DNA of 60,321 nucleotides from a virus. Lineage: Duplodnaviria > Caudoviricetes. The first letter of the stretch is position 1; the number at the start of each line of letters is the position of its first letter. Under the pieces are notes generated by a model that was given only the letters and a program-made list of their open reading frames with translations, was not told where the DNA came from and did not search any database. The stretch spans positions 1 to 60,321 of the IMG/VR virus record IMGVR_UViG_3300025154_001315. One strand, written 5' to 3'. Below, piece after piece: positions 1-19,806 of the stretch. Both the position numbers and the translations under genes were made by a program.

Positions 1-6
1 CAGCCT

Positions 7-132
7 CGGTAGGTGCAAGTGGGCGCGTACTGGGAGGTGAACTCCTTGGCCTCCGTGCCGAGGGCTTCCAGCACCTTCACCCTGCTCGCCCTGCACTTGC
101 GTCCGACGAGGCTGCTGGTCCGCCTGGCATCG
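7..132. repeat. 126 bp terminal overlap, identical to 60196-60321 (circular contig)
   Basis: Direct sequence identity; the first 6 nt of the window do not match; the overlap lies inside a CDS. Confidence 0.95.
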
Positions 133-794
133 GCGGGGATGAGCAGCTTGAGCGTCGTGTGCTCGTGGCCGTGCAGGACGGACTTCCACGCGATGAACTC
201 CCCCTCTTGCGGAGGGAGCTGGAAGTGAGGCAGGCCGGCGCCGCTCAGGTCGGCGCTGCGCAGGTCGGCGCTGCGCAGGTTGGCGCTGCGCAGGTCGGCG
301 CTGCGCAGGTTGGCGCTCCTCAGGTTGGCGCCGCTCAGGTCGGCATCGCTCAGGTCGGCGCCGCTCAGGTCGGCGCTGCGCAGGTTGGCATCGCTCAGGT
401 TGGCGCTGCGCAGGTCGGCGCTGCGCAGGTTGGCGCTCCTCAGGTCGGCATCGCTCAGGTTGGCGTCGCTCAGGTTGGCGCTGCGCAGGTCGGCGCTGCG
501 CAGGTTGGCGCTGCGCAGGTTGGCGCTGCGCAGGTCGGCGCTGCGCAGGTTGGCATCGCTCAGGTCGGCATCGCTCAGGTCGGCGCCGCTCAGGTCGGCG
601 CCGCTCAGGTCGGCGCTGCGCAGGTTGGCGCTGCGCAGGTTGGCGCTCCTCAGGTTGGCGTCGCTCAGGTTGGCGCTGCGCAGGTCGGCGCTGCGCAGGT
701 TGGCGCTGCGCAGGTCGGCGCGCTTGCCGTCTTGATCTCCGCGCAGATACTTGGCGTGCAGCTCCAGCACTTCCTTCAGGTTGATGGGGTCCAT
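7..794 (-). CDS. Pentapeptide-repeat protein with DUF5758-like C-terminal domain, 5' part (continues at 60195..60084)
   Basis: ATG at 794 with GGAG upstream; MDPINLKEVLELHAKYLRG then ~32 A(D/N)L(R/S)x repeats; continues ..LLIPADARRTSSLVGRKCRASRVKVL across the join. Confidence 0.9.
231..722. repeat. 15 bp tandem repeat (~32-33 units) encoding the pentapeptide repeats
   Basis: CAGGTYGGCGCTGCG-type units. Confidence 0.95.
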
Positions 795-896
795 GTACTC
801 AGCTCCTTGTGGGGTGGGGGTTACTCCGCCTTGCCAGGGCGCTTGGCATCGTCGTTCTCGGGCGCTTGTGGGGGCGCTATATAAAGGTAGGGCCGG

Positions 897-1151
897 CTAC
901 TCCACGTCGTCGTTCTCAGTCCTGCGGAAGGGCTTGCCGCGCCTGAGCGCCGTCTTGTCCACGGCGGCCATGATGTCGGGGAGGGACACCTTCTTCAGCC
1001 CCTGGTAGCAGAACGCGCGGATGAGGTTGGCGACGTTCATGCGGCGCTGCCTCTCGGGGTCCTTGGCGCTTCGGGCGCGGCACTTCGTGTTCAAGTCGTT
1101 AAGAGCTTTTCGCAGCTCTTCCGGTATCTTCAGGCTCTGAACCTGGTGCAT
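897..1151 (-). CDS. Putative ribbon-helix-helix-like regulator (paralog 1)
   Basis: GAGGAG RBS; MHQVQSLKIPEELRKALNDL..; similar to the 1613 and 1951 ORFs. Confidence 0.6.
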   Translation of the reverse strand: MHQVQSLKIPEELRKALNDLNTKCRARSAKDPERQRRMNVANLIRAFCYQGLKKVSLPDIMAAVDKTALRRGKPFRRTENDDVE

Positions 1152-1610
1152 TTGCGTCGCTCCTCGGTTGGTTGTTGGCGGTAAGGTAGTGTTGCTAGTT
1201 GGGCAGCCTAGCGCCTGTTTGGCGGGTTGGCAAGCATCGTAGTGCGATTCATCTGACGAAGGGGCTTGGGACTCACGTTGCAGGACGTGTTTTGAGGGGG
1301 CGCGTAACGGGGCCTGCAACGGCGGTAGTAACGTCGCTCTTCGCACTACGATGGCGGCGGTTTTACCTATGGGGAGGGGGTAAAATCCAGGCTTCACCTC
1401 TATACTCTGTTACTACTGTTACAACTTCCTTATAGAAAGAGTAGTAAGGGGTGCTTAGAAGGTGTGGTAAGACTGGGTGCCAACTTGCCTATATGCGGTT
1501 TGGCCCGTGTAAACCTGAAGCAGTAACGGGGCTCGGCGGGCTTGCGTGGAGTGGTTAGTGGGGGTAGTATGGCGGGTGTTGGTTCCTCGCAAGTGCAGAG
1601 TAAGGAGTGA
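1152..1610. promoter_or_regulatory. Divergent, less GC-rich control region; possible replication origin
   Basis: Lies between divergent paralogous regulators; GTAAC/GTTAC repeats; 13 bp inverted repeat 1235-1247/1341-1353. Confidence 0.5.
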
Positions 1611-1612
1611 AT

Positions 1613-1954
1613 GTGAAACGCACGATGGAGTTGCCGGACAAGGTTCATCAAGGAATCCTGGATTTGGCGGCCCGCCTCCGCATGGAGAACGGAGGCGCGG
1701 TCAAGTACAACCCCAGCAGCGTGACCAGGGTTGTTCTGGCGTTGGGCTTGGCCACTTTGTCGACGGAGGATGTGAAGAAGGCCATCGACAAGGAGGGAGT
1801 GCGGTGCGGCAAGCGCCCGTTCCGTCGAATCCAGACCGAGGAGGAAAAGAGCTACATCGTGGCGCGGATAACTCGCCTGAACTTGAAGCGCATGACCGCA
1901 GCAGAGGTTGACGAAGCGCTCAGAGCGTGGGACGCGCAGCGAGGCCGAAAGTGA
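1613..1954 (+). CDS. Putative RHH-like regulator (paralog 2)
   Basis: AAGGAG RBS; TMELPDKVHQGILDL..RCGKRPFRR resembles paralog 1 (RRGKPFRR); start uncertain. Confidence 0.6.
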   Translation: MKRTMELPDKVHQGILDLAARLRMENGGAVKYNPSSVTRVVLALGLATLSTEDVKKAIDKEGVRCGKRPFRRIQTEEEKSYIVARITRLNLKRMTAAEVDEALRAWDAQRGRK

Positions 1955-2136
1955 CCGGACTTCTTTCTAGACTCTTTTCAATTCACGACGTGGTCTACAG
2001 GCTCAACCGCAGGGACGACACGCCGCGCAAGCGCATCAACATCACACAGGTCTTGGTGGTGTACCTGAAGCTGGGTATCCCGCGCGTGTCCGACGACGAG
2101 CTGATGGCCGGGATCAAGGACCACTACGGACCATGA
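1951..2136 (+). CDS. Small protein, possible third paralog
   Basis: GTGA overlap with the upstream gene; RINITQVLVVYLKLGIPRVSDDELMAGI resembles RMNVANLIRAFCYQGLKKVSLPDIMAAV. Confidence 0.5.
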   Translation: MTGLLSRLFSIHDVVYRLNRRDDTPRKRINITQVLVVYLKLGIPRVSDDELMAGIKDHYGP

Positions 2137-2150
2137 CCTGACAACTTCGA

Positions 2151-2187
2151 ACCGGGCCCGTGGAGCGACGGGCCCGGTTTCGTTTCT
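2151..2187 (+). terminator. Intrinsic terminator
   Basis: ACCGGGCCCGT-loop-ACGGGCCCGGT followed by TTCGTTTCT. Confidence 0.7.
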
Positions 2188-2420
2188 GACAGCCCGTTCA
2201 GATCAGCCCCTCCCGTTGGTTGCGAATTCGTAAGTTGACAGCTCCCTCGCGCCGTCGCTGTGGGAAAGTGCCGAATTCGTTTGCGGCGGGGTGGGGCTCA
2301 GCTCATGAAGCGAGTCGCAGCGCGCTACCATTACATAGCTGCCCGGCGGCCGGTGTGATCTCCCTCCGCTAGATTCTTGATCAAGTCGGGCTTGATGGGC
2401 CGGAGCAGGCAGCCGGGCAC

Positions 2421-2448
2421 TTGTAATCGTAGTGCGGCGTGCTACCTT
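2421..2448 (+). promoter_or_regulatory. Sigma70-like promoter TTGTAA-16-TACCTT
   Basis: Near-identical copy on the minus strand at ~39931-39967; shared consensus with 3 other sites. Confidence 0.75.
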
Positions 2449-2483
2449 GTAGGTGCAAGGCAGCGCACACAAGGAGGCCAAAC

Positions 2484-2723
2484 GTGAAGGACCAACGCCG
2501 TGAAGTGCCCCTGGCAGTGATGATTAAGATGGCCCAGCACTACCGGGACTGCCACACCGTCGGGCACCGGGGCTGCGCCCGATGCACCCCCGCCAAGTGC
2601 CCCCACTGCCAAGCGGAAGGCCGTGAGGAGTACGCGCGGCAGGCCAAGGTGCTGGACCGGGCGGCCAACGCCTTCTTGGCCGCGCACGGCTTCAACCCCT
2701 ACAACGTGACGAAGGGAGGGTAG
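2484..2723 (+). CDS. Hypothetical Cys/His-rich early protein
   Basis: AAGGAGG RBS, GTG start, CxxC motifs. Confidence 0.7.
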   Translation: MKDQRREVPLAVMIKMAQHYRDCHTVGHRGCARCTPAKCPHCQAEGREEYARQAKVLDRAANAFLAAHGFNPYNVTKGG

Positions 2724-2724
2724 G

Positions 2725-2963
2725 ATGAAGACCAAGCTGGGCTACCTGGGCAACTTCACCTTCAAGCACCCGAACGAGGGCCCCGACAACTACGCGCCGC
2801 GCTGCCCCTACTGCAAGGCGGAGCTCGACGTCCTCACCGATGAGGAGTACAAGAACAAGGTTTCACGCACATCAACTGCCACTGCCCCACCGTCGGCGAC
2901 CACGGCCACGCGGACCACTGCCCCGTCACCATCCTGTCCAAGAAGCTGAGCGAGGAGGAGTGA
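2725..2963 (+). pseudogene. Small Zn-binding protein with an apparent -1 frameshift near 2859
   Basis: The -1 frame reads GFTHINCHCPTVGDHGHADHCPV..EEE* with typical C-ending codons and stops 2 nt before the next ATG. Confidence 0.6.
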
Positions 2964-2965
2964 AC

Positions 2966-3310
2966 ATGAGGACCGGTATCAAGTGGGACGATGTGAAGCA
3001 GTGGATGCAGAGCGAGAAGTTTGAGGAGGAAGAGGACGGCAGCTTCCGCCGCGTCTACTTGGGCACCGTCTTCACGCTGTCGCCGTCCGGCAAGTTCTAC
3101 ATGCCGTGGGCGCGCAGCAACGTCACCGAGGAGGAGGCCGCGAAGGACGAAGAGTTCTACGATGCGCTGCATGAAGAGGCCGAAGAGCACGGCTACTTCA
3201 TCCAGTCCGGCGAAGGCGACCCGTGCGACATCTTTGTCACCGAAGCGAAGGAGGACGAGAAGCCGCCTGACAGCATCGTGCAGCCGGATCGCTGCCGGCA
3301 GGACGACTGA
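2966..3310 (+). CDS. Hypothetical acidic protein
   Basis: GGAGGAG RBS, typical codon usage. Confidence 0.75.
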   Translation: MRTGIKWDDVKQWMQSEKFEEEEDGSFRRVYLGTVFTLSPSGKFYMPWARSNVTEEEAAKDEEFYDALHEEAEEHGYFIQSGEGDPCDIFVTEAKEDEKPPDSIVQPDRCRQDD

Positions 3311-3750
3311 TGTCCGCCTCCCACTGGTCCAAGATGGGGCTGCCCACCCCCACGAAGGAGCCGAAGCCCATGAAGCTGATCGACCACATGAAGAGCATGG
3401 AAGCTGAGTACCGGGAGTTCCTCTCCAAGATGATACGAGCCAAGACCGAGCAGTTCAACAAGACGATCGAGGTCGCCAAGAACGTGCGCCCCATCCGGCG
3501 CGCCGCGCAGAAGCACGACCTGCGCTACTTCTGGGGCGACCAGCTCTGGTGCCAGGATGTCAGCATCATGTCCTGGGATGAGTTCGTGGATGACGAGGCC
3601 TTCAAGTTCGCCGATGATCCGATGAACGAGGTCAACGCGAAGCAGCCGGAGGACGACGAGTGCGCGGAGTGGCTGAACACCGTGTTCGATTCCGTCTACC
3701 GCAGCCTCGCCGACGAGTTGAAGCTGCCGCTGGATGTCCTGGAGAGCTAG
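3310..3750 (+). CDS. Hypothetical protein
   Basis: TGATG coupling, typical codon usage. Confidence 0.75.
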   Translation: MSASHWSKMGLPTPTKEPKPMKLIDHMKSMEAEYREFLSKMIRAKTEQFNKTIEVAKNVRPIRRAAQKHDLRYFWGDQLWCQDVSIMSWDEFVDDEAFKFADDPMNEVNAKQPEDDECAEWLNTVFDSVYRSLADELKLPLDVLES

Positions 3751-3761
3751 GCCCAAGCCAC

Positions 3762-3789
3762 TTGCAATCACCACCCGGCACACTACTAT
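3762..3789 (+). promoter_or_regulatory. Sigma70-like promoter TTGCAA-16-TACTAT
   Basis: Matches the phage promoter consensus. Confidence 0.7.
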
Positions 3790-3834
3790 TAAGGTGCGGT
3801 AACGGCGCCGCCAAGAACGCACAAGGGGCACAAC

Positions 3835-4125
3835 ATGGCGTTTGACTTTGCGGTGGGGCAGCGGGTAATTGTCATACAGGTAAGCCTGGGCGATACGGAC
3901 TGCGACCACCCGGAAGCGCGTGGTGTGATTACGCGCCTGGACCCCAGGGGCAGCTACAGCGGTTCAGGTGAGCTGGAGCTCCACATCAAGGCCGATGACG
4001 GAAACCCCACTGTGGAGCCGGCCGACTGGTGCATCCCCGAAGTTGCCTGCACCTGCCGCAAGTACAACGATCACACCACCGACTGCCCCGTGTCCACCTT
4101 CAGCACCGCCGCCCACTACCGCTAG
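3835..4125 (+). CDS. Hypothetical protein with C-terminal CxC..H...C motif
   Basis: ORF directly downstream of the promoter. Confidence 0.7.
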   Translation: MAFDFAVGQRVIVIQVSLGDTDCDHPEARGVITRLDPRGSYSGSGELELHIKADDGNPTVEPADWCIPEVACTCRKYNDHTTDCPVSTFSTAAHYR

Positions 4126-4135
4126 GAGGCAAGCA

Positions 4136-4465
4136 ATGATTACCGCCAAGACCAACAAGACGGAAGCGCAGTACACCATCGGCTACATCAAGGAAGCAAT
4201 ACAAGACATGAAGCCTGAGGGCTACAAGCAGACCGATGTGGATGGCGCGCTGGCTAAGCTGGCGGCGGTCAAAGGCGACGAGACGGTTAGCTTCACACGA
4301 TGGGAAGCGGACATCGTATGGTGGTGTCTCTACCACATGCTGGATGCCAGCAACGAAATCCTCTGCAATTCGTTGGAGGGGCAGCTCTCCGAGGGGCTGG
4401 CCCCCTACCGCGGACACACCGACGTCTGCCCGACCTGTGGGCAGCTCACCAACACCAAGTCCTAG
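4136..4465 (+). CDS. Hypothetical protein with C-terminal CPTCG
   Basis: AGGAGG RBS; followed by a terminator. Confidence 0.7.
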   Translation: MITAKTNKTEAQYTIGYIKEAIQDMKPEGYKQTDVDGALAKLAAVKGDETVSFTRWEADIVWWCLYHMLDASNEILCNSLEGQLSEGLAPYRGHTDVCPTCGQLTNTKS

Positions 4466-4485
4466 CGCCCGGCCGACGCTAGGAC

Positions 4486-4522
4486 TGCCCCGCCCGCTAG
4501 CACAGGGGCGGGGCTTTTCTTT
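4486..4522 (+). terminator. Intrinsic terminator
   Basis: GCCCCGCCC..GGGCGGGGC followed by TTTTCTTT. Confidence 0.75.
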
Positions 4523-4528
4523 GCTCGC

Positions 4529-5068
4529 GTAGCACGATTCTTGACAATCGTGCTACTCCAGTCATTAAGCAGATTCGTCGAGTTTGCGTGTAAAGTTCCT
4601 TTACACTGATCCTAAAGCCCGATCGACGATCCGCCACCCGAGCTCGACGTATCGATCATACGAGTGAACGAGGTACGACGATCAATCCTCGTCCATCCAA
4701 GAGCGAAGTGCGAAGAGCCGAGTCCCATCTCCCTCCGCCAGAGCTCGAAGTGTCCGGGAAACACGAACTTGACAGTCAGATCCTGAGTTCTTGGACTCCA
4801 AGATCTGAATTCGTCATTTCCTCATACGATCGCGGACGAGTTTGACAGTCTGAGAGCGTAGATCTACATTCCCAGGTCCGAATTCGTCGTTTCCTCGACT
4901 GATCGTAGATCTTGGCTCGTGGTTCGAGGATCTTGGGACCTGGGAGCGGAGATCTTGGCTCTTGGTTGGCGGGATCTCAGTTCTCGGGTCGTCGAATCTG
5001 AAGATCCGGGAAAGTTGACAGCCGGATGCGATAAGATCTAAGATCTAAGTTCCAAATTCGTCAGAATC
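4529..5068. other. Non-coding TC/GA-saturated block with ~17 GATC sites and TTGACA..AATTCGTC modules
   Basis: No ORF >=60 aa; GATC sites counted by eye; 73 bp-spaced degenerate repeat (4769/4842, 4807/4880). Confidence 0.85.
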
Positions 5069-5311
5069 GGGGGTGCGTAATGTAGTGCGCGGGGTGGGTG
5101 CGTACTTTACGCACCTAAAGTAGTGTGTAAGCAAGGTGTGTGCTAGGCTGCTTTGCCCGCGCACTACCATTAGCAAGCGGCCCGTGGGGCAGGGTGCTTG
5201 GCACTTGGCACCCCGGCTGCACTACAGCCCGGCAACGTTGCAGCAACGCGCCCCGGCCTAGGGGCGTGCCACCCCACTTGCAGTTAACCCGTACCATACA
5301 AAGGTAACAAC

Positions 5312-5833
5312 ATGGCCAAGCACACCACCACCACCACCACCACCACTGGCAAGGGCAAGCGCGTGCCCGTGCCCAACGCCAAGCCCCAGGCGCCCGCCAA
5401 GCAGGCCCCGGCCGCCGCGCCCGTGGCCCCGGCCAGCCCCAGCACGGCCGCCGCGCTGGGCAACGCGCCCCTGGGGCAGCCGCCCGCCAGCGTGGCCCCG
5501 CAGGCCAGCCCCGCCCCCCGGTACTTGGCGCTGGCGGGCGTGGCGGCCCTGGCCGGGGACGTGGCCCTGGCCGTGTTGTACAGCGGGGGCAACCCCAAGC
5601 GCGGCAACCCCAAGCCCGGCCAGCCCCGCAGCGCCAGCCAACAGGCGTGGTTGCTGTACGCCGGGTGCGCCACCGTGGGCGCCTACCGCGCGGCCGTGCA
5701 GGCGTACGTGGCCAGCGGCGCCATGCCCTTGCTGGGCCACTGCACCAACGCCAACGCCAACTTGGCGTGGGACGCGGCCCACGGGCTGGTTGCCCTGGGC
5801 GGCGCGGCCCCCCGCACCCTGCCCAGCAAGTAG
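5312..5833 (+). CDS. NPKR..TV..AWD..H domain protein with Thr/Ala/Pro/Lys-rich N-terminus (paralog of 40050..40313)
   Basis: AAGGT RBS; no Glu, 2 Asp; motifs shared with the 40 kb protein. Confidence 0.85.
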   Translation: MAKHTTTTTTTTGKGKRVPVPNAKPQAPAKQAPAAAPVAPASPSTAAALGNAPLGQPPASVAPQASPAPRYLALAGVAALAGDVALAVLYSGGNPKRGNPKPGQPRSASQQAWLLYAGCATVGAYRAAVQAYVASGAMPLLGHCTNANANLAWDAAHGLVALGGAAPRTLPSK

Positions 5834-5847
5834 CGGTTAACCCCTAG

Positions 5848-5882
5848 TGCGCCCCGGCCAACACTGGCCGGGGCGCTTTGTT
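5848..5882 (+). terminator. Intrinsic terminator or attenuator
   Basis: GCGCCCCGGCCA-ACAC-TGGCCGGGGCGC followed by TTTGTT. Confidence 0.7.
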
Positions 5883-5891
5883 AGGTACCCC

Positions 5892-6200
5892 ATGGCCCAA
5901 TGCACTTGCCACCCTGGCCCCCACCAGCCCGGCACCACGGCCCCCGGCTGCCCCACCTGTACCGCCTGCCCCACCTGCCAAGCACCACACTACCACCCCG
6001 CGCAAGCCATACCCTACGGCGTTTGCCCCATAGCGGGCGGCTGCCCCACCTGCCGCTACCCCAACAGCAACCCGTGGCCCCCGCAGTGCCCCTGGTTGTT
6101 GGGCACGGGCCCCAAGCCCAACGCCCCGCAGTGCCACACGGGCCCCTGCCCCCTTTGCCACCTGGGGCACCACGGGTGTTGCGGCTGTAGCGCCCCGTAG
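5892..6200 (+). CDS. Cys/His/Pro-rich metallothionein-like small protein
   Basis: TAGGT RBS; repeated CPTC; no Asp or Glu; both Ile encoded by ATA. Confidence 0.7.
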   Translation: MAQCTCHPGPHQPGTTAPGCPTCTACPTCQAPHYHPAQAIPYGVCPIAGGCPTCRYPNSNPWPPQCPWLLGTGPKPNAPQCHTGPCPLCHLGHHGCCGCSAP

Positions 6201-6216
6201 CGCGTAGTGCGTAGCT

Positions 6217-6251
6217 GCCCGGCCCCCTGCCCAGGGGGCCGGGCTTTTTTT
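6217..6251 (+). terminator. Strong intrinsic terminator closing the TC-free cassette
   Basis: GCCCGGCCCCCTG..CAGGGGGCCGGGC followed by T7. Confidence 0.9.
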
Positions 6252-6430
6252 GTGCCCGTTTTTGGTTTGGCACAACACCTGCTCACTCTCCGGCTTATTG
6301 GAGAGGAGTTCTATGGACGAAGTCCCGAGAACGAAGACCGAGGAACCTTCCCCGAGCCCCGAGCCCCGAGCCCAGACCTCCCAGCCAAGCCCCTTGCACC
6401 TCGTCCGTCAGCGGTGCTAGCTTGTAGCGC

Positions 6431-6922
6431 ATGGATCAAGACGTCATTGTAGAAGCCAAGTTCCTCGTCAGGCCCGCTGAGCCGGACGACTTCGCCTTCA
6501 TCTTCTCCACTTGGCTGAAGAGCTACCGGTACAACAACCAGGACGTCTCCCGCGTCCCGGCCGAGCTCTACTACCGCAAACACCACGAGGTGATTGCCCG
6601 GCTGCGTGACCGCTGCGCCCTCCCAGTCGCCTGCCTCCCTGATTCACCCGCTGTGATCATCGGCTTCGCAGCGCTGGAGCTGCCCCCGGCCCTGCTGAAC
6701 ACCTCCTCTCTCCCACCGCCCGCTCCGGCGCCTCCCGTCATCCACTGGGTCTACGTGAAGCGCGCGTGGCGGCGGATGGGCGTGGCCACTCGGCTTCTCG
6801 GGCAACTCTCCCCCTCCGCCTGCTGCCACTCCCACTGGACCAGCGCCATCCACCCCTGGGCTCACGTCAAGTGGTCCGGCCTCCGCTACGATCCGTACTT
6901 GCAGGTCACCCCGCAGTCCTAG
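6431..6922 (+). CDS. GNAT-family acetyltransferase
   Basis: VRPAEPDD start; IHWVYVKRAWRRMGVATRLL acetyl-CoA-binding motif A. Confidence 0.8.
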   Translation: MDQDVIVEAKFLVRPAEPDDFAFIFSTWLKSYRYNNQDVSRVPAELYYRKHHEVIARLRDRCALPVACLPDSPAVIIGFAALELPPALLNTSSLPPPAPAPPVIHWVYVKRAWRRMGVATRLLGQLSPSACCHSHWTSAIHPWAHVKWSGLRYDPYLQVTPQS

Positions 6923-6931
6923 GAGCACCGC

Positions 6932-7153
6932 ATGAACCCGCTATTCCAGGTCCACACGCTGAACGACGACGGCATCAACAAGGCGAGGGCGATGGCCGAG
7001 GACTTCAGTGCTCTCGTGTCGAAGTTGCAAATCATCCTCGGCGACGGCGGCGTCAAAAGCCGAGAGTTTTCGCTCGTCAAGACGAAGCTCGAAGAGGCCG
7101 CGTTCTTCGCCAAGAAGGCGATGGCCAACCAGCTCGAGAACCAGACGAAGTAG
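6932..7153 (+). CDS. Acb2/Tad1-like hairpin protein (candidate immune-signal sponge)
   Basis: SREFSLVKTKLEEAAFFAKKAMA resembles the SRExSLAxTKLEEA motif. Confidence 0.65.
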   Translation: MNPLFQVHTLNDDGINKARAMAEDFSALVSKLQIILGDGGVKSREFSLVKTKLEEAAFFAKKAMANQLENQTK

Positions 7154-7189
7154 AACTCCCAGTTCACCCCGCAGTCCTAGGAGCACCGC

Positions 7190-7537
7190 ATGGCCAAGTT
7201 ACTCGTCGAGAACATCGCTCGCATCACTCACGAAGCGAACCGCGCCTACTGCCTCGCCCTGGGGGACAAGAGCCAGCTTCCGTGGGACGAAGCGCCGCAG
7301 TGGCAGCGCGACTCCGCCATCAACGGTGTGCGACACACCCTGGAGCACCCGAGCGCTCCGCCCTCCGTCTCTCACGACTCCTGGCTCGCCGAGAAGAAAG
7401 CGGCGGGGTGGAAGTACGGACCCGTCAAGGATCCGGAGAAGAAAGAGCACCCCTGCTTCGTGCCCTACGAGGAGCTTCCCGAGGATCAGAAGCTCAAGGA
7501 CACGCTGTTCCAGAACGTCGTCCGCAGCTTCATCTAG
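7190..7537 (+). CDS. RyR-domain protein
   Basis: HDSWLAEKKAAGWKYGPVKDPEKKEHPCFVPYEELPEDQKLKD. Confidence 0.85.
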   Translation: MAKLLVENIARITHEANRAYCLALGDKSQLPWDEAPQWQRDSAINGVRHTLEHPSAPPSVSHDSWLAEKKAAGWKYGPVKDPEKKEHPCFVPYEELPEDQKLKDTLFQNVVRSFI

Positions 7538-7567
7538 TTCACCCCGCAGTCCTAGAGGAGAAGAACC

Positions 7568-7810
7568 ATGCACTACCGCAACGGACGTGAAGCGAAGAAC
7601 GGCGACAAGATCGTGAAGCTGGAGGGCGGCAAGGTCGTCGCCTTCGGGGTGCTGCACAGCGCCGTCCCCGGCAACGACTTCTGCAACGGAAACATCGCCA
7701 CCATCCAGCCGCCCAACGACTACGCCTGCATGTGCGATTGCCTGCACGTCGACGACGTCGACGCGGTCCTGGCCGAGAAGGGCCTGGACAAGCGCCCCGC
7801 CGGAAAGTAA
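7568..7810 (+). CDS. Hypothetical protein (MHYRNGREAKNGD..)
   Basis: GAGGAG RBS, typical codon usage. Confidence 0.8.
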   Translation: MHYRNGREAKNGDKIVKLEGGKVVAFGVLHSAVPGNDFCNGNIATIQPPNDYACMCDCLHVDDVDAVLAEKGLDKRPAGK

Positions 7811-7844
7811 TCGGAAGTTCACCCCGCAGTCCTAGGAGCCCACG

Positions 7845-8165
7845 ATGCCCAGGCGTCTCCCGAAGCACGAAGTCGTCGAGTCCGAAGAGCCCGAGATCGT
7901 CACCGAGAACCCAACCGGCTTCTTCAAGGCCCCCAAGGCGCGGACGGTGATCCACGTCCGTACGCACGTCACCACGCAGATCGGCGCGTTCGGCAGCAGC
8001 CTGGACGCCAGCAAGAACAACCTCAAGATGGAGCTGCGCCCCGACCTGGGCGGCGTGCTGGTCTGCGCCAACTTCAACGGCAAGGAGCGCGAGTTCCTGG
8101 TCCCCTTCTCCATCATCGCCCACGCCGAGCTGGCGGTCGAGGTCGTCGACGTCGAGAAGGAGTAG
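7845..8165 (+). CDS. Hypothetical protein
   Basis: RBS within the repeat; typical codon usage. Confidence 0.75.
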   Translation: MPRRLPKHEVVESEEPEIVTENPTGFFKAPKARTVIHVRTHVTTQIGAFGSSLDASKNNLKMELRPDLGGVLVCANFNGKEREFLVPFSIIAHAELAVEVVDVEKE

Positions 8166-8193
8166 CCCCTCCCCGCCCGCAAGGAGCACGAAG

Positions 8194-8694
8194 ATGGTTG
8201 GAAAGCTCACCAGTCCGAAGCGGGTCCTGTCCCTCAAGCGGAGGGAGATCGCCCTCGCCCTCCGCTTGCAGGGCTACACCTACCACGAAATCGGCAAGCG
8301 GCTCAAGATCAGCCACGTCTCCGCGTGGCAGCACGTCAAGTCGGCGATGGAGGAGCACCGCAAGGCCCTGGCGGAGGACGTGGAGCAGGTCCGCGACATG
8401 GAGGTCAACCGCCTCGACGGGATGCTGGAGAAGCTCTACCCCCGCCGCAAGGACCCGCGCACGGCGGACACCATCCTGCGCTTGATGGACCGGCGCTCCA
8501 AGCTCCTGGGCCTGGACGTGCCGAATAAGGTGGACGTCAACGTCACCGGCCTGGAGAAGCTCAGCGATGAAGAACTCGTCAAGAAGGCCGAAGCCGTCTT
8601 CCGGCGCTCTGCCCGCAAGTCTGCAGAAGAAGCTGAGCGATCTGGAGAGGGCTCAGTTGATCCTGACGATTCGGGAGGCGCAGAAGAGGCATAG
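8194..8694 (+). CDS. terS: Terminase small subunit (HTH)
   Basis: LRLQGYTYHEIGKRL HTH; RRSKLLGLD motif; upstream of TerL. Confidence 0.75.
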   Translation: MVGKLTSPKRVLSLKRREIALALRLQGYTYHEIGKRLKISHVSAWQHVKSAMEEHRKALAEDVEQVRDMEVNRLDGMLEKLYPRRKDPRTADTILRLMDRRSKLLGLDVPNKVDVNVTGLEKLSDEELVKKAEAVFRRSARKSAEEAERSGEGSVDPDDSGGAEEA

Positions 8695-10105
8695 GCCATC
8701 GTTCCTCGACCTAGACTTCACCGCGCAGACCCGCTTCCTCAACGACACTTCCCCGCTCAAGGTGGGTCTCTGCACCCGCCGAGCGGGGAAGTCTTTTGGG
8801 ATGGGGCTGGGGCTGCTCCGGGCGGCGTACTACACCCCCGGCTGCAACTGCCTCTACGTCGCCCTGACACGCGACTCCGCCAAGAAGATCATGTGGAAGG
8901 ACGTGCTCAAGGTCATCGACAAGGAGGAGGGGCTGAACTGCAAGTTCCACGAGAACGACCTGACCTGCACCCTCCCCGACCCCATCAACAGCGTCATCTA
9001 CCTGCTGGGCGCCGACAGCAGCGAGAAGGAGAAGGCCAAGATGCTTGGCCAGAAGTATCGGCGCATCGTCATCGACGAGGCGAGCCAGTACTCCATCAAC
9101 CTGGAGGAGCTCGTCTACGGCACGCTCAAGCCCAGCGTGGCCGACTACCGTGGCGACATCTACCTCATCGGCACCCCCAGCGATATCCACAAGGGCCTCT
9201 ACTACGAGCTGACGCAGGGCCAGGACCCGACCACGCCGCACACCTGGAAGGCGAAGGGTTGGTCTGGGCACGCCTGGAGCGCCTTCCACAATCCGTACAT
9301 GGCGGAGAAGTGGCAGGCCGAGATCGACGACCTGAAGCTGGCGAACCCGCTCATCGACGAGACGCCCCTCTTCCAGCAGAACTACTACGGGCGTTGGTGC
9401 ATCAACGAGAGCGCCCTGGTGTACCGCTTCAACCGGGAGAGGAACCTGTGGTCTGGCGCCCTCCCCAAGTACGACAAGGGTGACTGGCACTTCATCCTTG
9501 GGGTGGACCTCGGCTACAACGACCCCTCCGCCTTCAGCCTCTGCGCCTACCACGACAACGACCCCTGCCTCTACGTGGTCTACTGCGAAGCCAAGGCGAA
9601 GATGGACATCACCGAGGTGGCGGAGCGCATCCGCATCTACCAATACCGCGTCCAGCACGAGTTCAAGCAGACGATCGAGGCGATGGTGGTGGACGGCAGC
9701 AACAAGCAGGCCGTGGAGGAGATGCGCCGCCGCCACGACCTGCCGGTTCAGGCCACCATGAAGACGGGCAAGTCCGACTTCATCGAGCTGATGAACGGCG
9801 ACTTCATCATGGGGAAGATCAAGGTCCACGAGACGCAGGCATACGACCTGACCGTGGAGTACGGCAGCCTCATCTGGAACGAGCACAGCATCAAGCGTGA
9901 GGAGCACCCCGCTTGCCCCAATCACTGTACTGACGCTACCCTGTATGCGTGGCGCAAGTGCTATCAGTATCTGAGCACGAAGCCGCAGAGCGCCCCCAAG
10001 CCCGGCACCAAGGAGTGGTTTGACGCGGAGGCGGCGGAGATGGAAGCGATGGAGCTCGCCCGTCTTGAGGAAGAGAAGGTCATGGAAAGGGACTGGTCAT
10101 GGTGA
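8567..10105 (+). CDS. terL: Terminase large subunit
   Basis: Walker A RRAGKS, Walker B IVIDEA, GTP motif, nuclease GVDLG and HCTDA; start uncertain. Confidence 0.9.
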   Translation: MKNSSRRPKPSSGALPASLQKKLSDLERAQLILTIREAQKRHRPSFLDLDFTAQTRFLNDTSPLKVGLCTRRAGKSFGMGLGLLRAAYYTPGCNCLYVALTRDSAKKIMWKDVLKVIDKEEGLNCKFHENDLTCTLPDPINSVIYLLGADSSEKEKAKMLGQKYRRIVIDEASQYSINLEELVYGTLKPSVADYRGDIYLIGTPSDIHKGLYYELTQGQDPTTPHTWKAKGWSGHAWSAFHNPYMAEKWQAEIDDLKLANPLIDETPLFQQNYYGRWCINESALVYRFNRERNLWSGALPKYDKGDWHFILGVDLGYNDPSAFSLCAYHDNDPCLYVVYCEAKAKMDITEVAERIRIYQYRVQHEFKQTIEAMVVDGSNKQAVEEMRRRHDLPVQATMKTGKSDFIELMNGDFIMGKIKVHETQAYDLTVEYGSLIWNEHSIKREEHPACPNHCTDATLYAWRKCYQYLSTKPQSAPKPGTKEWFDAEAAEMEAMELARLEEEKVMERDWSW

Positions 10106-10392
10106 AGAAGACGAAGCGCGAGGTGGCCGACGACCTGGAGCGTCTGCTCAAGCTGGCCCTGAAGCACAAGGCGCGGCGCCTGCGCTGCGGTGAGCTGGAA
10201 GTGGAGCTCGACCCGTCCGCGTTCGCGCCCCTCCCCACGCCCGCCAATCCGGACGACGTGGTCAAGGCCCTGGAGGCCGCGCGCAAGGAAGTCACCTGTC
10301 GCTGCGGCCACCCCTACGACGAGCACAACGAGATGGGCTGCCTCCACGGCTGCCCCCTGGGGACCTGTGCCCCTGAGAAAGAGGAAAGCTGA
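10099..10392 (+). CDS. Hypothetical protein with C-terminal Cys/His cluster
   Basis: Coupled between TerL and portal. Confidence 0.7.
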   Translation: MVKKTKREVADDLERLLKLALKHKARRLRCGELEVELDPSAFAPLPTPANPDDVVKALEAARKEVTCRCGHPYDEHNEMGCLHGCPLGTCAPEKEES

Positions 10393-12335
10393 TGGACTTC
10401 CGCGACTTCCACGTCAAGGGCGAGAAGCGCCCGAACAAGGAGCTCGAGGCGCGACCCCGCTGGTGGCTGGAGGAGGAGAACCTCAAGATCGCACAGTCGG
10501 TGAGCGCTGCCCTGGAGGTCATCAGCAAGGACCAGAACGAGCGGCTGAAGCAGTACCTCATCAGCACGCGGCTGTACGGCAACCTGGGCGTGAGCGGGCC
10601 CAGCGGAACCAGCTTCAGCAAGCTCAGCTCCACGCACCCGGTTCTCAAGGACAAGATCAGCTACAACGTGGTGCAGAGCGCGGTGGACACCATCGTCAGC
10701 AAGACCACGAAGAACCGCCCCAAGCCCCTGGCCCTCACCAACGGCGGCAGCTACAAGGAGCAGCGCAAGGCCAAGAAGCTGAACCGCTTCACGGAGGGCG
10801 TGTTCTACGAGCAGAAGGCGTACGAGAAGGGCGAAGTACAGATGCTGGACGGCTGCATCTGGGGCGACGGCCCCATGCACGTCTACGCTACCGACGAGGA
10901 CCGGGTGGGCTGGGAGCGCGTCCTCCCCCACGAGCTGTGGGTGGACAAGCTGGAGGCCTTCTACGGCGAGCCGCGCAACCTGCACCGCTGCAAGGACGTC
11001 GACCGGGAGGTGGCCTCCGCGTTCGTGACCAAGCTGCACAAGGGCAGCCCCAAGCTGCTCAAGGAGCTGCTGAAGGCCGTGGCCCAGGCCCCCGCCGCCC
11101 GCCCGGACGCTCACGGCACCTACGGCACCGTGAGCGACCTCATCACCATCCGGGAGTCGTGGCACCTCCCCAGCGGAAAGGACACCGGCGACGGCAGGCA
11201 CGTCCTCACCATCGAGGGGGCGACGCTCTTCGCGGAGGAGTGGAAGCGGCGGAGGTTCCCCTTCACCAAGTTCACGTGGTCGCGGCGGCGGCACGGGTAC
11301 TGGGGGCAGGGCTTGGCGGAGCAGCTCCAGCCCATCCAGCTCGAAGTCAACAAGCTGATGACCATCATCCAGCGGAGCTTTCACCTGGGAGGCACCTTCA
11401 AGGTCCTGCTGGAGAACGGGAGCAAGATCGTCAAGGAGCACCTGAACAACGACGTCGGCGCCCTGGTGATGTACAGCGGGACCAAGCCCGACTACATCGT
11501 CCCCCCGCTGGTCCCGCCGGAGATCTACCGGCACCTCCAGACCCTCCGCGATGCGGCGTACGAGCAGGCGGGCATCAGCCAACTCAGCGCGAGCAGCCAG
11601 CTTCCGCAGGGCGTGGAGTCGGGCAAGGCGATGCGGACCCTGAACAACATCGAGTCTGAGCGCTTCATCAGCATCGGCCACGCCTACGAGCGCTTCTACA
11701 TGGACGCGGCGGCGCTGAGCATCGAGACGGCCAAGGAGATCGCGGCTCGACACAAGGGCCACTACATGGTGAAGGTGCCGGGGCGAGTCTACTTCGAGGA
11801 CCTGGACTGGAGCGACGTCGATCTCGAGGAGGACTGCTTCGTCATGCAGGTGATGCCCATCAGCTCCCTGCCCAACGACCCAGCCGGGCGACTGGAGACG
11901 GTGCAGGAGTACATCCAGGCAGGCTTCTTCACCCCGCGCCAGGGAAAGAAGCTGATGGACTTCCCGGACCTGGAGGCGGCGGAGGGCTTGCAGGCCGCCA
12001 GCGAGGACTATCTCACCAAGATCCTGGACCTGATCCTGGACGAGGGAGTCTACACCCCGCCCGACCAGTTCGACGACCTGGAGCTCGGCCGCGTGATGGC
12101 GCTGGAGTACTACCAGCGCGGCAAGGCTAGCGATCTGGAGGAGGAGAAGCTGGAGATGCTCATCCGGTTCGTCGGCCAGATCGACGCGCGCAAGGCCGCT
12201 GCCCAGAAGCAGCTCCAGGAGCAGCAGACCGCGCAGCAGATGCAGCAGGCCCAGGCGGGGGTGCAGCCCCAGGCGGAGCCCGAGCCCCCGCCCACCAGCG
12301 ACATCATCCCCAACGTGCCGGGGATGCAGCAGTAG
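10392..12335 (+). CDS. Portal protein
   Basis: 647 aa, follows TerL, Gln-rich C-terminus; assigned by synteny. Confidence 0.8.
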   Translation: MDFRDFHVKGEKRPNKELEARPRWWLEEENLKIAQSVSAALEVISKDQNERLKQYLISTRLYGNLGVSGPSGTSFSKLSSTHPVLKDKISYNVVQSAVDTIVSKTTKNRPKPLALTNGGSYKEQRKAKKLNRFTEGVFYEQKAYEKGEVQMLDGCIWGDGPMHVYATDEDRVGWERVLPHELWVDKLEAFYGEPRNLHRCKDVDREVASAFVTKLHKGSPKLLKELLKAVAQAPAARPDAHGTYGTVSDLITIRESWHLPSGKDTGDGRHVLTIEGATLFAEEWKRRRFPFTKFTWSRRRHGYWGQGLAEQLQPIQLEVNKLMTIIQRSFHLGGTFKVLLENGSKIVKEHLNNDVGALVMYSGTKPDYIVPPLVPPEIYRHLQTLRDAAYEQAGISQLSASSQLPQGVESGKAMRTLNNIESERFISIGHAYERFYMDAAALSIETAKEIAARHKGHYMVKVPGRVYFEDLDWSDVDLEEDCFVMQVMPISSLPNDPAGRLETVQEYIQAGFFTPRQGKKLMDFPDLEAAEGLQAASEDYLTKILDLILDEGVYTPPDQFDDLELGRVMALEYYQRGKASDLEEEKLEMLIRFVGQIDARKAAAQKQLQEQQTAQQMQQAQAGVQPQAEPEPPPTSDIIPNVPGMQQ

Positions 12336-12368
12336 TTCTCGCAGCTCACCCGTAGCAAGGAGTAGATC

Positions 12369-13322
12369 ATGCCCGAGGCAACCCCAGTCGCCCCCGTCGT
12401 CGAAGCCCCGAAGGTCGAAGCCCCGAAGACCGAGCCGGTCAAGACCGAAGCCCCGCCCGTCGCCGCTCCTCCCCCCGCCGCTCCCGCCAAGGACGACGCG
12501 GCGGAGCGCATCGCCAAGGCGTTCGGCGCCATGAGCAAGAAGGAGAAGCAGCTCGTGGAGGAGAGCCGCAAGCTCAGCGCCGAGCGCGCGGAGCTGGCCA
12601 AGGACCGCGAGGCGGTGGCGGCGCACAAGGCCGCGCTCGCCGCCGCCAAGGCCAAGCCCCTGGAGGCGCTGGCCGCCCTGGGTCTCAGCTACGACGAGCT
12701 GACGAACGTCATCGCCAACAACAACCAGCTCACCCCGGAGCTGAGGACCAAGGCGGAGATCGAGGAGGCGAAGGACCTCGCACGCAAGGCGGCGGCGGAC
12801 CTTGAGGAGATGAAGAAGGAGAACGCCACGGCGGCCGAGCGGGCCAAGGAGGCGCGGAAGCAGGCGGCGCAGCAGCAGTTCCAGGCGCAGTATGACCGCT
12901 GGGTGGCGGGCACGGTTGCATTCGTCAAGGCGAATGCAGTACAGTATGAACTGACGAACCTCAACGATGCCCAGGGCGAAGTGCCCAAGCTCATCGAGGC
13001 GGTTCACAAGAAGACGGGCAACCTGCTGACGAAGGAAGAAGCCGCAGAGCGCATCGAGGCGTACTTCGTCGAGCGGGTTGAGAAGTCGGTGGCCAGCGAG
13101 AAGTGGAAGCGCCTGCAAGCGGAGAAAGCAGCCAAGGCCACGCCCCCGGCCGCCAAGAAGGGGGAAGAGAAGCCGGTCGAAGCGAAGCGGCCTACCCTGA
13201 ACAACGACCTCACCGCAACCACCAAAGTCCCCGTGCCGAAGAAGAACGAGACGCGGGAAGAGACGATGGCCAGGGTGAAGGCTGCATTCGAAGCGGCGAA
13301 GGCCAAGAACACTCCGGCCTAG
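12369..13322 (+). CDS. Capsid scaffolding protein
   Basis: Ala/Glu/Lys coiled coil between portal and capsid. Confidence 0.7.
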   Translation: MPEATPVAPVVEAPKVEAPKTEPVKTEAPPVAAPPPAAPAKDDAAERIAKAFGAMSKKEKQLVEESRKLSAERAELAKDREAVAAHKAALAAAKAKPLEALAALGLSYDELTNVIANNNQLTPELRTKAEIEEAKDLARKAAADLEEMKKENATAAERAKEARKQAAQQQFQAQYDRWVAGTVAFVKANAVQYELTNLNDAQGEVPKLIEAVHKKTGNLLTKEEAAERIEAYFVERVEKSVASEKWKRLQAEKAAKATPPAAKKGEEKPVEAKRPTLNNDLTATTKVPVPKKNETREETMARVKAAFEAAKAKNTPA

Positions 13323-13370
13323 TACCTCCCCCGCAGTGCTGCCGCCAAGCGGCAGGAAGGACAAAGGATC

Positions 13371-14606
13371 ATGGCGAATCTCGACCTGACCGCGATGTCG
13401 GCGGCTCTCAAGGAGTACTACCACGGCCAGAAGGTCACCGACCTGACCTTCAAGAAGAACCCCACCCTGGCCCTGCTCAAGAAGGACACCAAGGCGGGCG
13501 GCGAGGTCATCCCCGTCCCCGTGATGTACGGCAAGAGCCAGGGGCGCAGCGGCGACTTCGCCACGGCGCAGGCCAACCAGACCGCTCCGGTGCTGGCGAA
13601 GTTCATGCTCACCCGCAAGAGCGACTACTCGCTCGCCACCATCGACAACCAGACCCTGGAGGCCACGCAGAACGACGTGGAGGCCTTCATCAAGGCGAGC
13701 GAGCTGCACATCGACGCCGCCTACCACACCATCGTCGCGTCGGCGGCCAGCGGCATCTTTCGCGCGGGCACCGGCACCATCGGCCAGATCCACGCGGACT
13801 GGACCGACGGCAACGACGGCGTCTTCGAGCTGGCGGAGGCCGTGCAGGCGCTCCAGTTCGAGGTCGGCATGGCCATCACCGCCTCCAGCGGCGACGGCAG
13901 CGGCACGGTGCGCGCGGGCGTGGGCTACGTCCTCGCGGTGAACGTCGCCAGCGGCAGCATCACCGTGAGCACCACTCGCGGCGGCGCCGCGGGCGAGCCG
14001 ACGGCCTGGGCCGCCCTGGACTACCTCCAGGTCCAGGGCGACTACAACGCCAAGATCAGCGGGTTCGGCGCGTGGCTGCCCATCGTCCGCACCGGCCTCG
14101 CCACGAGCTTCTACGGCGTGAACCGGAGCCTGCACGAGCGGCGGCTGGCGGGCGTGTACCACGACGGCAGCGCCCAGTCCATCGAGGAGGCCGCGATCGA
14201 CCTCTCGAACTACACGGCGGAGAACGGCGGCAGCGGCAGCAAGCTCATCACCAACTACCGCTCCTACGGCGCGCTGAAGAAGGCCCTGGGCTCGAAGGTC
14301 CAGTACGTGGACCTGGAGACCGAGGTCGGCATCGGCTTCCGCGGGATCCGCATCAGCGGCGACGACGGCGAGATCGACGTCATCCCGGACCGCAACTGCC
14401 CCGCGCGCCTGGGCTACCTGCTCGACATGGACACGTGGTGCCTGCGCTCCGTGGGCGAGGTGCCGCACATCATCACCTACGGCAAGGAAGGGCTGGAGAT
14501 GCTCCGCGTCTCCAACCAGGACGCCGCCGAGGTCCGTATCGCGTACTACGCGAATCTCGAGTGCAACGATCCCGGCGCCAACGGCGTGGTCCAGTTCGGG
14601 GCCTAG
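13371..14606 (+). CDS. Major capsid protein
   Basis: 411 aa, strongly biased codons, follows scaffold, followed by a hairpin. Confidence 0.8.
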   Translation: MANLDLTAMSAALKEYYHGQKVTDLTFKKNPTLALLKKDTKAGGEVIPVPVMYGKSQGRSGDFATAQANQTAPVLAKFMLTRKSDYSLATIDNQTLEATQNDVEAFIKASELHIDAAYHTIVASAASGIFRAGTGTIGQIHADWTDGNDGVFELAEAVQALQFEVGMAITASSGDGSGTVRAGVGYVLAVNVASGSITVSTTRGGAAGEPTAWAALDYLQVQGDYNAKISGFGAWLPIVRTGLATSFYGVNRSLHERRLAGVYHDGSAQSIEEAAIDLSNYTAENGGSGSKLITNYRSYGALKKALGSKVQYVDLETEVGIGFRGIRISGDDGEIDVIPDRNCPARLGYLLDMDTWCLRSVGEVPHIITYGKEGLEMLRVSNQDAAEVRIAYYANLECNDPGANGVVQFGA

Positions 14607-14627
14607 TCGCCAGCGCGCAGTGAACTA

Positions 14628-14663
14628 GGGGGAGCCCGACCCATCGGGCTCCCCCGCCCTTTT
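14628..14663 (+). terminator. Terminator after the capsid gene
   Basis: GGGGAGCCCGA..TCGGGCTCCCC followed by a T run. Confidence 0.6.
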
Positions 14664-14673
14664 CGGAGGAATC

Positions 14674-15120: not shown

Positions 15121-15223
15121 TACCCTGGGAATGGCGGGGCGTAGGGCCCCGCCACCCCGGTCCACATCAGGGGCGATCACTGGACCGTAACCAACTCCGC
15201 CCTCAGCACTGAAGGAGATACAG

Positions 15224-15613: not shown

Positions 15614-15625
15614 GAGACCTGACTC

Positions 15626-16009: not shown

Positions 16010-16018
16010 GAGCCGATC

Positions 16019-17008: not shown

Positions 17009-17010
17009 TC

Positions 17011-18270: not shown

Positions 18271-18271
18271 G

Positions 18272-19796: not shown

Positions 19797-19806
19797 GGAG
19801 ACCACA

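Follow-up and report, generated by a model that had tools for sequence, protein, structure and literature searches.

What is the 540-bp non-coding block at positions 4529-5068 of the phage genome IMGVR_UViG_3300025154_001315, which meets, to the base, a 1.2-kb stretch without a single TC dinucleotide? The window analyzed is the whole 60,321-bp IMG/VR virus record (record class linear, no end repeats; CheckV completeness 100%). A preliminary description made from the letters alone had read the block as a densely modified landmark, such as a packaging or terminus signal, an ejection stop or a transcription insulator. Our analysis points, with a probability somewhat better than even, to tandem promoters and operators serving a self-contained, moron-like unit that would be transcribed rightward; the block is thus most likely a control region, and its use as a packaging signal is unproven.

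Word composition on both sides of the junction

The block contains no open reading frame (ORF) longer than 50 amino acids (aa), and none of its five ORFs matches PHROGs. Its GC content is 51%, against 65% for the genome. As had been noticed, it is crowded with GATC, which occurs 17 times (4608, 4621, 4628, 4654, 4680, 4779, 4802, 4828, 4861, 4901, 4908, 4929, 4951, 4973, 5003, 5035 and 5042), and it holds 6 of the 10 AGATCT sites of the genome. TTGACA is present four times, TCGA eight times and GAATTC twice, which means that the mention of many TCGA and GAATTC was right for the former and overstated for the latter.

The block had also been called saturated with TC and GA. Its 63 TC are indeed the top count, equaled by none of 2990 sliding 540-bp windows (mean 34.7), and it holds 59 GA; such windows contain 1.5 GATC on average, against 17 here. 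However, 25 of these TC sit within GATC or TCGA, and removing them leaves 38, about the genome mean. The excess comes wholly from these two words, and the block is therefore GATC-rich, not generally TC-saturated.

Word enrichment was evaluated with 5000 sequences simulated from the block's own dinucleotide frequencies. The observed GATC count (17 vs 7.6 expected) was reached in 6 of the 5000 simulations, and those of AGATCT (6 vs 0.55) and TTGACA (4 vs 0.08) in none; TCGA (8 vs 9.2) and GANTC (6 vs 6.8) were not enriched in the same simulations. Outside the block and the unit that follows it, GATC occurs 150 times vs 252.7 expected from a Markov model (observed/expected ratio, o/e, 0.59), and AGATCT, with 4 copies outside the block vs 13.3 expected, is the most depleted of the palindromic hexamers that contain TC. 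The true signal is a concentration of GATC-centered palindromes and of TTGACA.

At the right edge of the block, TC vanishes at a single base, as the preliminary description had stated: after the TC at 5067-5068, none occurs until 6283. The resulting gap of 1216 nucleotides (nt; 5067-6283) is far longer than the second longest of the genome, which measures 155 nt. The TC-free unit, hereafter the cassette, is laid out as follows.

5069-6282, plus strand: TC-free unit, 0 TC and 2 GA in 1214 nt
5069-5311, plus strand: leader, part of the TC-free unit
5312-5833, plus strand: first ORFan gene (173 aa)
5849-5876 plus T-run, plus strand: first terminator (12 stem pairs)
5892-6200, plus strand: Cys-rich ORFan gene (102 aa)
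6217-6244 plus T-run, plus strand: second terminator (12 stem pairs)

GA occurs in the cassette only at 5558 and 5771, hence the minus strand has two TC. From base composition, 66 TC and 57 GA would be expected in the stretch, and from genome rates 78 and 71. The two genes have a GC content of 0.77 and 0.72 vs 0.58-0.67 in their neighbors, and 0 TC vs 1.1-9.1 per 100 nt. The lack of TC and GA imposes odd compositions on their proteins: the first is Ala/Pro-rich with a run of eight Thr, only two Asp and no Glu, and the second, free of acidic residues, has ~20 Cys arranged in CPTC-like repeats. The leader (5063-5320) folds no better than shuffles (z -1.50). A mutational origin of the TC-free run through a deaminase was considered and rejected, the run being 71.5% GC, with the products TT and AA below the expected enrichment.

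Promoter-like modules and the unit they face

The elements listed below, their order, their orientation and the statistics on them are direct observations. M0 to M4 are copies of one module.

2235-2280, plus strand: M0, the outlying module copy, with TTGACA at 2235-2240, AATTCGT at 2274-2280 and no good -10
4487-4522, plus strand: intrinsic terminator of the upstream small-gene operon, a 9-bp stem with arms GCCCCGCCC and GGGCGGGGC, then TTTTCTTT (T-run)
4529-4579, plus strand: M1, a perfect 11-bp dyad with TTGACA (4541-4546) in the loop and first right-arm base, and ATTCGTC at 4573-4579
4588-4606, no strand: 8-bp dyad GTGTAAAG-TTC-CTTTACAC (z -5.18)
4608-4683, no strand: first GATC cluster, five sites, mostly (C)GATC or GACGATC, with TCGA interspersed; a purine-rich stretch separates it from the 73-bp duplication
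4763-4835, plus strand: M2, copy 1 of a 73-bp tandem duplication, with TTGACA at 4769-4774, a GATC-ended dyad as spacer, a weak -10 (TGGACT) and GAATTCGTC at 4807-4815
4836-4908, plus strand: M3, copy 2 of the 73-bp unit and promoter candidate, with TTGACA at 4842-4847, a 17-nt spacer, TACATT at 4865-4870, AGATCT overlapping the -10, and GAATTCGTC at 4880-4888
4853-4962, no strand: imperfect inverted repeat with 30-nt arms (4853-4882 and 4933-4962; 80% complementary, 50 nt apart; z -5.33), pairing the M3 core with an inverted partial copy
4908-4977, plus strand: 22-bp tandem array of 3.2 copies (68% matches), three units opening with GATCTTGG and the partial last one with GATCTCAG
~4973-5007: a further dyad, between the 22-bp array and M4
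5012-5068, plus strand: M4, the promoter candidate nearest the cassette, with TTGACA at 5015-5020, an 18-nt spacer, TAAGAT at 5039-5044, two AGATCT overlapping the -10, and AATTCGTC at 5055-5062, the module ending six bases before the TC-free run

Most of this framework had been recognized beforehand. The three TTGACA at 4769, 4842 and 5015, paired with (G/A)AATTCGTC at 4807, 4880 and 5054, are present as described; the 11-bp hairpin at 4529-4556 is a perfect dyad (4529-4539 with 4546-4556); and the related motif reported near 2224-2280 proved to be the module copy at 2235-2280. What had been missed is that TTGACA is the sigma-70 -35 consensus, which is exact in all of M0-M4 and always on the plus strand. 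The five modules have TTGACAG(Y)C in common, and (A)ATTCGT lies 39-40 nt from the start of TTGACA (32 nt in M1). The pattern TTGACA-N28-38-ATTCGT has four matches in the genome (2235, 4769, 4842 and 5015), against 0.00 expected from 100 shuffles. An extracytoplasmic function-type promoter reading of AATTCGTC was rejected by eye, no AAC-type -35 lying at 16-17 nt.

All modules are found on the plus strand in non-coding gaps, behind terminators and ahead of plus-strand genes; M0, for instance, sits in an intergenic gap with a terminator-like hairpin before it and the gene 2439-2723 after it. This gene (plus strand) has 3 TC in 285 nt (1.1 per 100 nt vs 2.7-9.1 in its neighbors) and a normal GA content. 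The intergenic region of M0 also has words in common with the block and leader, namely ATCTCCCTCCGC(T/C)AGA (2358-2373 and 4727-4742) and CGC.CTACCATTA (2324-2336 and 5158-5171).

The whole genome was then scanned on both strands with the E. coli-type promoter consensus, which may not be that of the phage host. Only six matches of at least 9/12 were obtained in 60,321 bp, and the only two that reach 10/12, M3 (4842-4870) and M4 (5015-5044), are both in the block, on the plus strand and directed toward the cassette. Region 1-9000 contains four promoter matches vs 1.0 ± 1.3 in shuffles. A -10 hexamer 16-18 bp from the -35 is found in two of the five modules, M3 (TACATT, 17 bp) and M4 (TAAGAT, 18 bp). 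The TC-free run begins ~18 nt past the predicted M4 start and stops 29 nt past the last terminator T-run; its limits therefore coincide with those of the transcription unit.

Chance could in principle account for such a region, as a duplication-prone spacer whose repeats and palindromes come from slippage and whose promoter-like words are fortuitous. The 73-bp tandem duplication and the 22-bp array would then be the products of local slippage, and the block is not conserved in any relative examined. However, GATC and AGATCT are depleted elsewhere and concentrated here, four TTGACA stand on one strand with a fixed-distance partner that recurs at 2235, and the TC boundary is exact to the base, and we regard a block devoid of dedicated function as very unlikely.

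Under the promoter and operator reading, the terminator at 4487-4522 would stop transcription coming from the upstream small genes, and host RNA polymerase would start at tandem sigma-70/SigA-type promoters, M3 (start ~4875) and M4 (start ~5050), with M0, M1 and M2 as possibly weaker or factor-dependent copies. Transcription would pass through a 240-nt leader into the two ORFan genes and end at the two intrinsic terminators, and (A)ATTCGTC would fall at about +4 to +12 of each transcript. Operator sites for a putative regulator might be provided by AGATCT, GATCTTGG, the 11-bp dyad over the M1 -35 and the 22-bp repeats. The unit could be immediate-early, or the promoter could be a late one whose transcripts continue past the cassette terminators. 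That the promoters fire, when they do so and that a protein binds the dyads is what we infer from the layout.

Several features bear on the two halves of this scheme. The distribution of AGATCT, depleted elsewhere and present in six copies in the block, is what one would expect for a dedicated binding site, as is the restriction of the GATC dyads to the block; lying over the -35, spacer and -10 elements, these dyads would suit operators; and M1, whose dyad folded as DNA gives z -4.99, looks like an operator. No sigma factor (PF04542) was found in the family search of the genome, and a host polymerase with a host sigma is therefore expected; the search for a single-subunit RNA polymerase (PF00940) also gave no match, a result that is uninformative as its control matched nowhere either. 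The whole-genome consensus scan revealed no other sigma-70-like promoter for the 30-kb rightward operon, and polymerase might therefore conceivably pass the cassette terminators and go on into the packaging and structural genes. Of the functions proposed in the preliminary description, the transcription insulator comes closest, with a terminator before the block, promoter-like modules within it and a terminator-bounded unit after it.

The good folding of the block has another conceivable meaning, a structured non-coding RNA: as RNA the block gives z -4.11, and 0 of 100 shuffles are as stable. Yet the same dyads fold equally well as DNA, no Rfam match with E < 0.1 was obtained in 4300-6500 (the best, at E 0.11, was far under gathering scores), no homologous sequences were found for covariation, and most of the block would lie upstream of the starts if the promoters are real. 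A structured RNA is, in our judgment, the least probable of all the explanations considered.

Candidate promoter sites of another kind, matching the sigma-54-type consensus TGGCAC-N5-YTGCW, are present in the cassette, and the dyads might then be an enhancer where a host enhancer-binding protein activates two sites of the form TGGCAC-N5-CTGC (5206-5221 and 6268-6283). The genome contains no further exact match to the consensus. Both lie on the plus strand, one 91 nt ahead of the ATG at 5312 and the other 30 nt ahead of that at 6313; 0.22 matches would be expected from a first-order simulation (4 of 200 simulations reach two), and the dyads are 160-350 bp upstream of the first site. With one mismatch allowed, however, the words are not enriched (9 vs 6.2 expected); they are favored by the local TC/GA-free, GC-rich composition; the genome family search found no encoded enhancer-binding ATPase; and an actinobacterial host, if this is the host, would lack sigma-54. 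A sigma-54 enhancer thus appears highly improbable. The end of the TC-free run is the last base of the second site (6268-6283).

Several known arrangements resemble the promoter and operator reading. Morons are autonomous promoter-gene-terminator units of phages, and the predicted M3/M4 promoters together with the terminators at 5849-5876 and 6217-6244 would give the cassette its own promoter and terminator. Like morons, it has its own candidate promoter region and intrinsic terminators, a deviating GC content and a site between early and packaging genes; unlike them, it has a 540-bp multi-promoter region far above the usual size and a TC/GA-free composition for which the literature search found no precedent. 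In T7, the tandem host-polymerase promoters A1, A2 and A3 lie ahead of gene 0.3. The block similarly offers tandem sigma-70-type candidates within a few hundred non-coding bases, in one direction and with small non-structural genes after them, but no terminus is shown beside it, a good -10 is found in two modules only, its modules share a downstream octamer, GATC dyads are interleaved, and the transcribed unit lacks a dinucleotide. Finally, the lambda late promoter PR' with its terminator tR' stands upstream of the late operon. Here too a strong constitutive-type promoter candidate is followed by terminators just before packaging and structural genes, but a 1.2-kb, two-ORF unit rather than a short RNA separates the promoter from the late genes, and no Q-like antiterminator turned up, though no specific search was made for one.

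Other observations weigh against the promoter and operator reading. M0, M1 and M2 are without an acceptable -10, and the most conserved partner of TTGACA is (A)ATTCGTC, at a fixed distance and with no known role in sigma-70 promoters. Two of the three portal relatives are in bins of actinobacterial metagenome-assembled genomes, while the scan consensus is of E. coli type. Family searches detected no DNA-binding regulator among the neighboring small genes, and the block is carried by none of the 19 related loci examined. In addition, promoter function alone leaves the 17 GATC and the 22-bp array unexplained.

Thymidine hypermodification

The proposal that the block is densely modified fits the gene content of the phage, in which the following cluster (49170-55554, minus strand) was identified.

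49170-49709, minus strand: HD 5'-deoxynucleotidase
50106-51236, minus strand: thymidylate-synthase homologue (Thymidylat_synt, 2.2e-20)
51657-52427, minus strand: TET-associated glycosyltransferase (TAGT, 5.4e-12)
53016-53969, minus strand: 5-hydroxymethyldeoxyuridine (5-hmdU) DNA kinase (HMUDK_hel, 1.8e-27)
53966-54610, minus strand: FkbM-type methyltransferase (6.5e-18)
within 54613-55554, minus strand: dCMP deaminase (8.6e-14)

A 153-aa ORFan lies between the thymidylate-synthase homologue and the glycosyltransferase. This is the gene set of a thymidine-hypermodifying phage using the 5-hmdU kinase pathway, with thymidylate-synthase homologue, kinase and tailoring enzymes all present. No kinase of a cultured phage is more than 28.7% identical to this one; the closest is that of PhiJL001, in which kinase, glucosyl transferase, thymidylate-synthase homologue and dCMP deaminase keep the same order and a DNA polymerase separates the latter two. 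Neither Tet/JBP nor an HU/TF1-like protein was found by family searches of the genome. Because the phage encodes this set, dense modification of the block is plausible, and the earlier proposal stands at that strength.

In one paper, hypermodification in kinase-bearing phages is described as TG/TC-biased, with restriction-resistant sites of M6, ViI and phiW-14 enriched in TG/TC (PMC6449724), and another reports a phage thymine dioxygenase with a strong NTC preference (PMC13229309). The exact modification motifs were given as unknown in 2018 in a third (PMC5889632). For this phage a TC context of modification is plausible, as suggested solely by the TC-free run. T in TC context accounts for 122 of 264 T in the block (both strands) and 7425 of ~21,040 in the genome (35%), and for 2 of 346 in the cassette. 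C follows the last T of both -10 hexamers, GA is inside TTGACA, two TC are in AATTCGTC, and each of the 17 GATC has a TC on either strand. If T in TC is hypermodified, each recognition element of the block would hold a modifiable T and the transcribed unit almost none.

This leads to the possibility that the block is a modification-reading switch, at which hypermodified packaged DNA and fresh unmodified DNA would be read differently. We consider it rather unlikely on present sequence evidence. If true, RNA polymerase, a regulator or the terminase would be the reader of the modification state, transcription of the driven unit, almost TC-free on both strands, would be blind to it, and the whole would amount to a phage-encoded epigenetic timer based on thymine hypermodification. 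Thymidine-hypermodifying phages have mainly been studied for restriction escape rather than for a role of the modified base in their own transcription, and how modified T affects the strength of promoters "remains to be studied" (PMC6449724). The literature search returned nothing relevant on modification-free regions in hypermodified phages. The locus offers a natural contrast, since its densest region for the candidate dinucleotide, with the strongest promoter matches, abuts to the base a terminator-bounded unit without that dinucleotide. Should the TC context be confirmed, the pair would be a test bed for hypermodified T in promoter recognition and in elongation; should the block be only a promoter cluster, it would be ordinary and the cassette beside it extraordinary. 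The interest of the block derives from its base-exact junction with a TC-free unit in a thymine-hypermodifying phage.

Palindromic hexamers with TC/GA and without it have o/e values of 0.63 and 0.54, respectively (Mann-Whitney p 0.22), and the nine most avoided hexamers (expected at least 8, o/e < 0.30) are all without TC/GA. Outside 4529-6283, the avoided hexamers include GTGCAC (0 vs 13.4 expected), CAGCTG (3 vs 42.3), CCCGGG (2 vs 20.6), AAGCTT (2 vs 17.3) and CCGCGG (8 vs 46.0). Such extreme palindrome avoidance suggests pressure from host restriction systems.

IS10 pIN is a Dam-sensitive promoter. Like pIN, and like P1 pac (PMC6449724), the block has clustered GATC in a candidate cis-acting site, where a mark on the DNA could decide whether a protein recognizes it, and GATC overlaps the -10 of M3 and M4. 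Unlike them, it belongs to a phage that encodes no Dam, its mark would be the proposed TC thymine hypermodification, and it is away from the terminase genes.

Genome map, packaging and replication readings, and relatives

Plus-strand genes span ~1.6-36.4 kb and include the following.

8194-8694, plus strand: TerS-like (small terminase) gene
8567-10105, plus strand: TerL (large terminase)
10392-12335, plus strand: portal

The minus strand from 36.5 to 60.3 kb carries replication and nucleotide-metabolism genes, the former comprising a family A DNA polymerase, an SNF2 helicase, a PD-(D/E)XK nuclease and a DUF3854/DUF5906 primase-helicase-like protein. Eight groundwater runs from four studies are listed for this DNA, none of them RNA, and four (X2, X4, X5 and X7) were examined, as contigs. 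The end-to-start junction of the window is spanned by contigs of two other runs of the same study, which also traverse the block without a break. This indicates a circular map, or else one that is permuted or terminally redundant. These contigs break inside a 15-nt-period repeat, at 281-692. The repeat as a whole (111-785) consists of ~32 overlapping copies and is open on both strands; its minus-strand translation matches several PHROGs of unknown function (best 2.1e-59), its plus-strand frames have a third-position GC of 0.90-0.95, and it is both the break site of other assemblies and the place of a pile-up of many unrelated contigs.

On this map, the packaging or terminus landmark of the preliminary description can be weighed. 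The modules would be small-terminase sites and the GATC cluster a pac/cos-like cut or terminal-repeat boundary, maybe read only when modified, with the cassette at the first-entering genome end. Four same-strand modules in 540 bp beside dyads and tandem repeats are in line with such a site, which would also be compatible with genome-end promoters, as at the T7 left end. The TerS-like protein has an N-terminal helix-turn-helix with a weak likeness to sigma-70 region 4 (E 0.0019, below the Pfam cut-off), and the nearest cultured TerL relatives are T5-like phages with long terminal repeats, at an identity of only 24.8% over 77% of the query. A GATC-cluster precedent is provided by P1 pac (PMC6449724). 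On the other hand, 3.1 kb and nine ORFs lie between the block and the TerS-like gene downstream of it, which puts the block neither within nor beside the terminase genes, and the module copy at 2235, 2.5 kb off, is in an ordinary terminator-to-gene gap. The genome has no phage Dam-family methylase (PF02086 absent at E <= 1), no terminal repeat is recorded for the IMG/VR record, and a promoter reading is simpler for the TTGACA/-10 pairs. A packaging landmark is thus unlikely. The PDB sequence search gave no match for TerL and, for TerS, four chance-level matches only (E 0.4-0.54).

The ejection stop recalls the T5 injection stop signal iss, portrayed as a large untranslated region of repeats, inverted repeats and palindromes with an ordered series of DnaA boxes (bioRxiv 10.1101/866236). 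Compared with that portrayal, the block is likewise a repeat- and palindrome-crowded untranslated region beside what would be first-expressed genes, in a phage whose TerL is distantly T5-type, but 4529-5068 contains no DnaA box at up to one mismatch.

The lack of a DnaA box in the block also counts against a replication origin, in which the 22-bp GATC-headed repeats would serve as iterons, the DNA would unwind at the AT-richer M4 core, and the promoters would activate the origin through transcription. The 3.2-copy array has the iteron length of 17-22 bp, the block has a GC content well below that of the genome (51% in 65%), and oriC, P1 oriR and the T7 primary origin offer precedents for GATC clusters and for origins associated with promoters. 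Against this, the 22-bp repeats are merely 68% alike, no initiator-like gene stands beside the block, its flanking ORFs being without family matches, and the replication genes are 30-55 kb distant on the other strand. At up to one mismatch, DnaA boxes give 13 matches in the genome vs 22 expected, none of them in the block, and the GC-skew profile has no clear inflection at the block. An origin here seems quite improbable and, with the sigma-54 enhancer and the structured RNA, belongs to the weaker rivals of the promoter and operator reading.

Conservation of the rich/poor juxtaposition had been proposed as a check. Searches of 50,697 phage records with 4400-6400 (blastn) and 8000-20000 (megablast) gave no match. 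Relatives were collected through TerL in IMG/VR (8 loci, 42-52% identity, none with a long TC-free run or a comparable GATC cluster), through TerL in JGI metagenomes (12 loci, of which 8 were examined, none with block or cassette features; L015, L018, L020 and L021 were left out as short, 1.0-2.6 kb) and through the portal in GTDB (3 loci, none with the features). The juxtaposition was found in none of the 19 loci examined, an absence that is weakly informative as only 8 of the 23 loci reach at least 4 kb upstream. None of the 19 is close enough in neighboring-gene arrangement for an insertion to be judged, TerL or portal identity being at most 58% in full-length matches.

Queries with the cassette proteins and the kinase found no relatives in IMG/VR. 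In protein searches, the first cassette protein matched only itself and one public variant (P37T), and the second nothing; the Atlas gave no match of at least 0.9. The module pattern matched at least 118 stretches of IMG/VR, with a single match each in the 80 listed, consistent with chance. In the cultured kinase-bearing phages Lucjan (whole genome) and PhiJL001 (first 50 kb), no comparable GATC block was seen, and the longest dinucleotide-free run was at most 1.66 times the Poisson expectation, compared with 9.49 for TC here. As far as these collections reach, the block and cassette appear to be peculiar to this phage lineage.

Between the cassette and the terminase genes lie a weak GNAT acetyltransferase match (6431-6922, plus strand) and a RyR-domain protein (7190-7537, plus strand). 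A 22-38-nt element (GTTCACCCCGCAGTCCTAGGAG...) has four plus-strand copies in this region (6897-6934, 7155-7192, 7530-7567 and 7810-7847), each preceding one of four consecutive gene starts; an ATG closes three of the copies (6932, 7190 and 7845), and the fourth start (7568) comes directly after its copy. It might be a control element common to these genes, translational or RNA-binding in nature.

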